Assembly: GCF_003334335.1 (NCBI RefSeq) | Contig: NZ_QOWQ01000106.1 | DNA from: Escherichia coli | GTDB lineage: Bacteria; Pseudomonadota; Gammaproteobacteria; Enterobacterales; Enterobacteriaceae | Strand: one strand, 5' to 3' | Length of the DNA stretch: 1,460 bases | In this document: positions 1 to 1,198 of the stretch, one piece after another | How positions within the stretch are numbered: position 1 is the first letter of the stretch | How the letters are laid out: each line of letters begins with the position of its first letter | The notes under the pieces: model-generated | Told to the model about the DNA's origin: nothing | The model's input: the letters and a program-made list of their open reading frames with translations, nothing else | Database searches by the model: none | Program-made: the position numbers and the translations under genes

Positions 1-173
1 GCCTGCCGGGGCAGCAGTATGATGAGGAGTCCGGCCTGTATTACAACCGCCACCGCTATTATGACCCGCTGCAGGGGAGGTATATCACTCAGGATCCGAT
101 TGGGCTGAAGGGGGGATGGAATTTTTATCAGTATCCGCTGAATCCGGTTCAGTATATAGATTCAATGGGACTG
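1..173 (+). other. Rhs core C-terminal hyperconserved region, including the DPIGL motif (codons at 93-107) and the terminal PxxxxDxxGL-type motif [10 protein letters not shown] (144-173) that marks the core/CT boundary
   Basis: Direct translation. GC-rich (about 60% by hand count over 1-120) compared with the rest of the window. Confidence 0.85.
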
Positions 174-632
174 GCATCAAAATATGGACACTTAAATAAT
201 GGCGGATATGGAGCGAGACCCAACAAACCGCCTACGCCCGATCCAAGTAAATTGCCGGACATAGCGAAACAATTAAGACTGCCATATCCTATTGACCAGG
301 CCAGTAGTGCGCCTAATGTTTTCAAAACATTCTTCAGAGCATTAAGCCCTTACGACTACACACTGTATTGCAGGAAGTGGGTAAAACCAAATCTGACTTG
401 TACGCCACAGGATGATTCCCAGTATCCAGGGATGGATACAAAGACAGCAAGTGATTACCTGCCACAGACAAATTGGCCAACAACTCAATTACCACCAGGA
501 TATACTTGTGCAGAACCCTATTTATTCCCAGACATTAATAAACCCGATGGGCCAGCAACAGCAGGGATAGATGATTTGGGTGAAATTTTAGCTAAGATGA
601 AACAGAGAACATCGAGAGGAATAAGAAAATGA
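1..632 (+). CDS. Rhs-family (YD-repeat) polymorphic toxin, 3' end only (5'-partial; reading frame begins at position 3; stop TGA 630-632). Encodes the end of the conserved Rhs core plus a variable C-terminal toxin domain of unknown activity. May correspond to an orphan rhs fragment such as E. coli K-12 ybfO, but this cannot be confirmed from the window.
   Basis: Frame 3 is open from position 3 to 632 with no stop. Translation begins [57 protein letters not shown], which is the hyperconserved Rhs core terminus (YYDPxxGRYxxxDPIGLxGGxNxYxY...PxxxxDxxGL). The six-frame track starts this ORF at ATG 165 only because that is the first Met; the conserved Rhs sequence upstream shows the gene continues beyond the 5' edge of the window. 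Confidence 0.92.
174..629 (+). other. Variable Rhs C-terminal (CT) toxin domain, about 152 aa, activity unknown
   Basis: Sequence after the DSMGL boundary: [152 protein letters not shown]. It is rich in Pro, Tyr and Thr, has 3 Cys, and shows no nuclease (HNH, His-Me), deaminase or ART motif that I can recognise by eye. Lower GC than the core. Confidence 0.7.
614..620 (+). promoter_or_regulatory. Shine-Dalgarno sequence (GAGAGGA) for the downstream immunity-like CDS
   Basis: GAGAGGA at 614-620, 8 nt upstream of ATG 629; lies inside the 3' end of the Rhs CDS. Confidence 0.55.
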
Positions 633-685
633 AAAGAGTTTTGTTCTTTTTGCTGATGATATTTGTTAGTTTTGGTGTTATAGCT
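629..685 (+). other. Predicted signal peptide (19 aa) of the immunity-like protein; probable SPase I cleavage after VIA
   Basis: [19 protein letters not shown] followed by DCE. No canonical lipobox, because the residue before Cys is Asp, so a lipoprotein is unlikely. Confidence 0.6.
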
Positions 686-1198
686 GATTGCGAAATACAA
701 GCTAAAGATCATGATTGTTTTACTATTTTCGCTAAGGGTACTATTTTTTCCGCGTTTCCTGTCTTAAATAATAAAGCCATGTGGAGATGGTATCAGAATG
801 AGGACATCGGTGAGTATTATTGGCAAACAGAACTGGGTACATGTAAAAATAATAAATTCACACCAAGCGGGGCGAGACTCTTAATTCGCGTCGGGTCACT
901 ACGCCTTAATGAAAATCATGCCATCAAAGGAACGTTGCAGGAGTTGATAAATACAGCAGAAAAAACGGCGTTTCTCGGCGATCGGTTTAGAAGTTATATA
1001 AGAGCGGGTATCTATCAAAAAAAGAGCAGTGATCCAGTTCAGTTGTTGGCAGTCCTTGATAATTCAATCATGGTAAAATATTTTAAAGATGAGAAACCAA
1101 CTTATGCTCGAATGACAGCACATCTCCCGAACAAAAATGAGTCTTACGAATGTTTAATAAAGATACAGCATGAACTAATTCGTAGTGAAGAGAAATAA
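629..1198 (+). CDS. ybfC: Putative Rhs immunity protein (RhsI-like), 189 aa, with N-terminal Sec signal peptide; predicted periplasmic. Resembles E. coli K-12 YbfC in length and context (tentative).
   Basis: Complete ORF ATG 629 to TAA 1196-1198 with an SD 8 nt upstream. The start overlaps the Rhs stop (ATGA at 629-632), the usual arrangement of toxin/immunity pairs. N-terminus [21 protein letters not shown] has a positive n-region, a hydrophobic h-region and a V-I-A signal peptidase I site. Position immediately 3' of an Rhs CT domain. The gene symbol rests on recalled length (189 aa) and neighbourhood (rhs fragment upstream, H-rpt transposase downstream), not on a verified alignment. Confidence 0.8.

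Follow-up and report, generated by a model that had tools for sequence, protein, structure and literature searches.

A stretch of DNA from Escherichia coli (NCBI RefSeq assembly GCF_003334335.1, contig NZ_QOWQ01000106.1; 1,460 nucleotides, referred to as a whole as the window) encodes the end of an Rhs core that reads DSMGL instead of the canonical DPxGL, and raises the question whether the missing proline marks a tolerated variant of its family or a self-cleaving module in decay. The C-terminal plug of Rhs proteins is described as an aspartyl autoprotease; it contains two DPxGL motifs with a spacing of 17 residues and is cut behind the second (PMC8636562). In Rhs1 of P. laumondii, whose cleavage site lies after the second DPLGL, processing is abolished by D1338N (PMC8636562); the same effect was documented for D1324N and D1346N in P. 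protegens RhsA (PMC8765631) and for D1141A and D1164A in Tse5 of P. aeruginosa, which is cut at Leu1168-Ile1169 (PMC10684867). The published cleavage-abolishing mutations all hit aspartates; mutagenesis of the proline was not found in the searchable literature.

The window represents the tip of the long-known rhsC region of E. coli, i.e. the core end, a C-terminal toxin domain (CT), ybfC and the start of ybfQ, all on the plus strand. Positions 3-173 encode the final 57 residues of the Rhs core, comprising the C-terminal plug and its aspartyl autoprotease region; the Rhs-CT toxin domain follows at 174-632 (152 amino acids and a TGA stop), and the ATG of the presumed cognate immunity gene ybfC (629-1198; annotated protein YbfC) overlaps the CT stop codon (ATGA). 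ybfQ, which encodes a fragment of an ISAs1-family (H-rpt) transposase, begins with the last 37 bases (1424-1460; annotation L001 10424-10660). A constitutive RpoD promoter was reported for the spacer between ybfC and ybfQ by genomic SELEX (PMC3946193); its hexamers were located at 1372-1400 (TTTTCA-17-AATACT, plus strand; reported for ybfQ), a site missing from a consensus promoter scan of the window, and promoter-like and terminator-like sites in the window were no more frequent than in shuffled sequence. Short minus-strand open reading frames across 85-325 were dismissed as unsupported. Chromosomes of E. coli match the window at 100% identity; among 5426 complete genomes, 3510 cover 80% of it or more. 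In the K-12-type genome ER1709, the gene order is ybfA, rhsC, ybfB, a 5'-truncated RHS core fragment, ybfC, ybfQ, ISAs1 remnants and ybgA; the encoded core fragment is N-terminally truncated and annotated as a pseudogene.

The terminal motif and the recombination boundary

Positions 3-632 (plus strand, frame 3) form a single open frame that reads DSMGL followed by ASKYGH and ends with GIRK before the stop codon. The first-pass annotation had described a canonical first motif, DPIGL at 93-107, and a terminal motif at 144-173 with serine in place of proline; the former was borne out by translation and codon arithmetic, the latter by translation, codons and the ends of the HMM matches. Asp 93-95 of the first motif is the predicted first catalytic aspartate, the homologous residue being needed for cleavage in P. 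protegens RhsA (D1324N) and Tse5 (D1141A). In the terminal motif, Pro is encoded at 144-146, Asp at 159-161, Ser at 162-164 (TCA) and Gly-Leu at 168-173, the codons of DSMGL being GAT TCA ATG GGA CTG. Residues 1-57 of the window protein matched model positions 1205-1261 of 1261 in NF041261 (RHS_core; E 7.7e-32; the full-protein cut-off of 2000 bits is out of reach for a fragment of 57 residues) and positions 20-76 of 76 in TIGR03696 (Rhs_assc_core; E 2.5e-20; 72.7 bits versus a cut-off of 32.5). Since both models extend exactly to the Leu of DSMGL (residue 57), this motif is the terminal one of the core. The consensus given as PxxxxDPxGL and the choice of the terminal copy were likewise correct, as the literature describes two DPxG motifs with cleavage after the second. 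Because Rhs1 and Tse5 are cut at the equivalent position, the predicted scissile bond of the window protein lies after the Leu of DSMGL (173/174).

The literal consensus is absent from the window protein (the regular expression P.{4}DP.G[LWF] gave no match); the two-aspartate architecture, in which the Asp motifs are 17-18 residues apart, is present as DPIGL, a spacer of 17 residues as in the characterised Rhs proteins, and DSMGL. Both aspartates and the distance between them are preserved, as are the Pro at 144-146 and the Gly-Leu pair (168-173). In comparison with Rhs1, P. protegens RhsA, Tse5, A. dhakensis TseI and TcC, the boundary takes the same position at the end of the core HMM and shares the spacing of 17 residues between two Asp motifs, a Pro at the fifth position ahead of the Asp, Gly-Leu preceding the junction, and the succession of an unrelated, low-GC toxin tip and an overlapping immunity gene. 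It differs in the residue after the second Asp, which is Ser and not Pro (DPxG is found in every solved Rhs/Tc structure aligned).

The exchange of Ser for Pro is a residue-level reading in which no statistical pattern is involved. That the serine is an artefact of sequencing, of assembly or of a wrongly read frame is extremely improbable: five independent complete genomes share the same codons, a protein cluster at 90% identity with DSMGL comprises 2339 member sequences, and the HMM-matched core runs on uninterrupted in this frame.

A comparison with main rhsC, which belongs to the same K-12-type locus, placed the boundary between core and cassette to within the terminal motif. Window positions 1-146 are 97% identical to main rhsC at the nucleotide level, whereas positions 147-260 reach 33%; the GC content drops from 0.58 to approximately 0.40 across positions 100-200, and the main RhsC protein continues after its core end with a different CT, starting ETLKC. 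The low-GC variable tip cassette is accordingly delimited to positions 147-632. Since the similarity breaks off directly after the Pro codon 144-146, VQYIDSMGL is inherited with the toxin cassette. Judged by this break, the serine is no mutation of the E. coli core and belongs to the variable side of the boundary: the xxxxD(S)xGL stretch would travel with the low-GC toxin cassette rather than with the conserved core, and the exchange itself (a single-base change, CCA to TCA) would have arisen within the enterobacterial branch of the CT family and been kept since.

Intact and displaced copies of the tip in E. coli

In the strains E2865 and 300709, the same 1460 bases terminate intact genes for a 1399-residue "RHS element core protein" (both 100% identical over the full window; the E2865 locus, whose protein is WP_126347089.1, was compared base for base). 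These full-length genes are situated between ybfA and ybfC, i.e. at the rhsC locus, are free of internal stops and encode the N-terminus MSGKPAARQGDMT. The YD-repeat shell and the PAAR-type N-terminus, both beyond the limits of the window, are present upstream of the identical sequence in these two strains and absent (truncated) in ER1709. Intact 1399-residue Rhs proteins with this tip were also found in O157:H7 strain 9234 (rhsC locus; 98.4% nucleotide identity) and in EC21Z-151 (rhsB locus beside nikR; 96.3% nucleotide identity). All four read DPIGL, 17 residues, DSMGL and then ASKYGH, with the codons GAT TCA ATG GGA CTG, and DSMGL was the sole form found with this tip in the E. coli copies examined. 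In a sample of 54 genomes, evenly spread among those with full coverage of the tip, it was annotated on a full-length core protein in 14 and on a fragment in 40; the displaced K-12 arrangement is present in approximately 2538 genomes, as compared with 3509 that carry the tip.

These distributions bear on the second reading that had been offered for the serine, namely that it cripples the autoprotease, that the toxin is not released and that the module is a degenerating remnant. The K-12-type tip is indeed an N-terminally truncated fragment with the annotation of a pseudogene, and damaged copies exist: one protein of 174 residues (P0025; E. coli, on a 4.7-Mb contig) carries an in-frame deletion of 26 residues including the first catalytic motif, which makes it a copy of this tip that has truly decayed, and one of the Phytobacter loci (L005) has a frameshifted CT end. 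Against this stands the fact that full-length, undamaged genes from several lineages, at two different loci, carry the same DSMGL. The K-12-type tip resembles the published orphan rhs-CT/rhsI modules (Jackson 2009, Poole 2011, Koskiniemi 2014) in its position downstream of rhsC-ybfB, in the missing N-terminus, in the immunity gene and ISAs1/H-rpt remnants that follow, and in its attachment to the main gene in other strains. The window itself lacks the features that define an orphan; as the same bases terminate full-length genes in E2865 and 300709, orphan status cannot be read from the window alone.

The coexistence of displaced and attached copies fits the published model of displacement and re-fusion, in which a newly acquired Rhs tip pushes the attached one downstream (PMC2935791) and orphan tips can re-fuse onto the main gene, as shown for a Salmonella orphan (PMC3967940). 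In K-12-type genomes, the tip would have been displaced downstream by a newer one (the main RhsC-CT and ybfB) and would persist as a silent orphan that may be re-attached by homologous recombination.

Further rearrangements were observed around the tip. A chimeric open reading frame of E. coli (P0003, 284 residues) joins the N-terminus of an ISAs1/H-rpt transposase (PF13808) in frame with the core and the DSMGL tip; in some strains, an IS element may thus have inserted into the core fragment. In O157:H7 (L012, 6370-7426) and EC21Z-151 (L013, 6268-7518), genes annotated as "NTF2 fold immunity protein" and "DUF6258 family protein" follow the attached tip and ybfC; these small genes look like stand-alone immunity genes without toxin fragments.

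Conservation and selection in the toxin and immunity pair

The CT belongs to a small family (26 matches) with an invariant SPYDYTxYC..W block and three invariant Cys residues; it gave no match in Pfam and none in NCBIfam beyond the core, and YbfC matched no family in either collection. An AlphaFold2 model of the CT fold based on an alignment of 13 sequences reached pLDDT 63 and pTM 0.40, and a Foldseek comparison with the PDB yielded no hit with E <2. Among the CT homologues of approximately 70% identity, DSMGL was found in Salmonella enterica (P0011), Phytobacter (P0017 and L005) and metagenomic sequences (P0007 and P0018), DSLGL in P0008, DALGL in P0012 and Phytobacter L004, and DPMGL or DPKGL in S. 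salamae (P0009, P0010). The Rhs of Phytobacter locus L004 is intact (1383 residues) and shares 66% identity with the E. coli protein from end to end. More distant CT relatives (35-52% identity) mostly carry DPxGL, including a full-length Rhs of Burkholderia diffusa; proline also occupies the boundary in P0151, P0153, P0155, P0158 and P0175, and DSIGL was found in P0152. The first motif varies as well: DPIRL, with Arg for Gly, was observed in the intact Phytobacter Rhs (L004, 9920-9934), in P0125 and in P0152.

A search of genome contigs with the CT profile returned six loci. Two of them, on short contigs of MAGs labelled "Candidatus Nanosynbacter" (L002) and "Flavobacterium psychrophilum" (L003), carry a tip 99-100% identical to that of E. 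coli and are almost certainly E. coli contamination of the respective bins. A YbfC homologue was kept at every CT locus with flanking DNA: it lies directly 3' of the CT homologue at two Phytobacter loci (64% and 60% identity) and follows it in Burkholderia diffusa (27% identity, E 8e-19). The arrangement, a variable CT followed by a small co-inherited gene, with ybfC overlapping the CT stop, corresponds to the layout of polymorphic toxin/immunity systems. The ratio dN/dS (Nei-Gojobori) amounted to 0.10-0.30 for the CT and 0.10-0.26 for ybfC. Based on these low ratios and on the YbfC homologue that follows the CT, the two genes represent a constrained toxin/immunity pair. The N-terminus of YbfC (window 629-700) resembles a Sec-type signal peptide, and those of the Phytobacter and Burkholderia homologues are similarly hydrophobic; this signal-like segment, together with the three Cys residues and the SPYDYTxYC..W block of the CT family, suggests that the toxin may act in the periplasm.

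For a degenerating module, the persistence of the serine would be unexpected: it survives a synonymous divergence of approximately 0.8 between the Ser-bearing copies of E. coli and Phytobacter at a dN/dS of approximately 0.2, and the cognate immunity gene has been retained wherever it was looked for. The purifying selection on tip and ybfC (dN/dS 0.1-0.3) does not support the decaying orphan module that the first-pass annotation had considered.

Non-proline boundaries in other Rhs tips and their possible meaning for cleavage

The residue after the second Asp was compared among 107 distinct tip starts with a two-motif boundary, drawn from the best 150 matches of an exhaustive search of 1.84 billion representatives and from earlier matches (a word-indexed protein search with the 95-residue core end returned only fragments of up to 170 residues, so that the exhaustive search of representatives was used). 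In this sample, which leans to enterobacterial cores and whose counts ignore relatedness, Pro occurred in 97 tip starts, Ser in 6, Ala in 2, and Val and Phe in one each; non-Pro residues thus account for 10 of the 107 tip types (approximately 9%). The clearest parallel is the RhsH tip of E. coli (strain 120899; ext-h1), an intact RHS element core protein of 1421 residues that reads PVRFIDSLGL and then KFHVNG, with "dsORF-h1" following its gene. This tip is present in 1083 genomes, in 1027 of them with an identity of at least 99%. It shares with the window tip an intact Rhs with Ser after the Asp and an aromatic residue at position -2, and differs from it in the unrelated sequences of CT and immunity protein, in the Ser codon (TCT versus TCA) and in the chromosomal locus. 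Intact Rhs genes thus include an established minority with Ser behind the catalytic Asp.

The predominance of proline, which occupies the position in about 90% of the sampled tips and in each of the aligned structures, can be cited in favor of a crippled autoprotease; the intact RhsH and the intact Phytobacter Rhs, both non-Pro, argue against it. In view of the intact genes, the selection on the tip and the conserved immunity gene, degeneration is considered very unlikely as an explanation of the serine.

The non-Pro types have a further property in common. At position -2 of the Asp, 8 of the 10 non-Pro types contain an aromatic residue (F, W or Y), in contrast to 25 of the 100 DPxGL types (Fisher p ~0.0009, with relatedness ignored); in the window this residue is Tyr (153-155), and the non-Pro proteins examined at this position include P0051, P0152, P0159, P0190 and P0247. 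Position -2 may hence be a compensating position. It is conceivable, albeit unlikely, that non-Pro boundaries are cleaved with altered kinetics or under other conditions (more slowly, or upon a trigger), the aromatic residue restoring the packing of the turn. The enrichment and the origin of the non-Pro state in approximately seven unrelated tip families are consistent with such tuning; on the other hand, the sample is small, a single CT family contributes several of the ten types, relatedness was ignored, and an aromatic residue at -2 is common with Pro, too (25%). The more specific proposal that the D-S/A/V/F-x-G-L motifs constitute a distinct subclass of Rhs boundaries, whose autoproteolysis is slowed or conditional and in which a co-evolving aromatic residue at -2 compensates, appears doubtful; if true, the proline would serve to tune the self-cleaving plug instead of being strictly required for it.

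Taken over all copies, DSMGL is probably the native terminal autoprotease motif of the YbfO-type CT/YbfC tip, and a tolerated, cleavage-competent variant. Its tolerance within the family, which had been raised as one of two readings, gained support from the four intact 1399-residue Rhs proteins, from the Ser-bearing homologues of Salmonella and Phytobacter and from DSLGL in the intact RhsH. The proposed alignment with the C-terminal ends of full-length Rhs proteins identified DSMGL as the family standard; the documented processing that was sought along with it was not found for an Rhs with D-S-x-G-L, as the searchable literature yielded no cleavage experiment on an Rhs with Ser or another non-Pro residue after the second Asp, and literature searches for DSMGL, DSLGL, ybfO and ybfC gave nothing on Rhs processing. 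That intact genes conserve the motif speaks for a functional protein, without proving that cleavage is unchanged. Sequence, genomic context, distribution and selection signal are direct observations, from which we infer that an Rhs with DSMGL is most likely cleavage-competent: on the full-length protein, the plug would then still cut after the Leu, i.e. between Leu1247 and Ala1248 of the 1399 residues (window 173/174), and would release a toxin of 152 residues inside the YD shell.

DSMGL is therefore best described as what it is in E. coli: an ordinary natural variant, normal for this tip and not a sign of decay. The biological weight of the substitution is small, since it is apparently a tolerated one in a well-understood self-cleaving motif. 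A practical consequence concerns the delineation of toxins by regular expression: one Rhs pipeline applies PxxxxDPxG[LWF] with the fallback DPxG[LWF], and on the window protein this fallback would pick DPIGL and set the toxin start 22 residues too early; approximately 9% of the sampled tip types would be equally mis-cut. With regard to the mechanism, the natural Ser, Ala, Val and Phe variants in intact genes suggest that the proline may be dispensable, and they represent a free mutational dataset for the dissection of the Rhs autoprotease.
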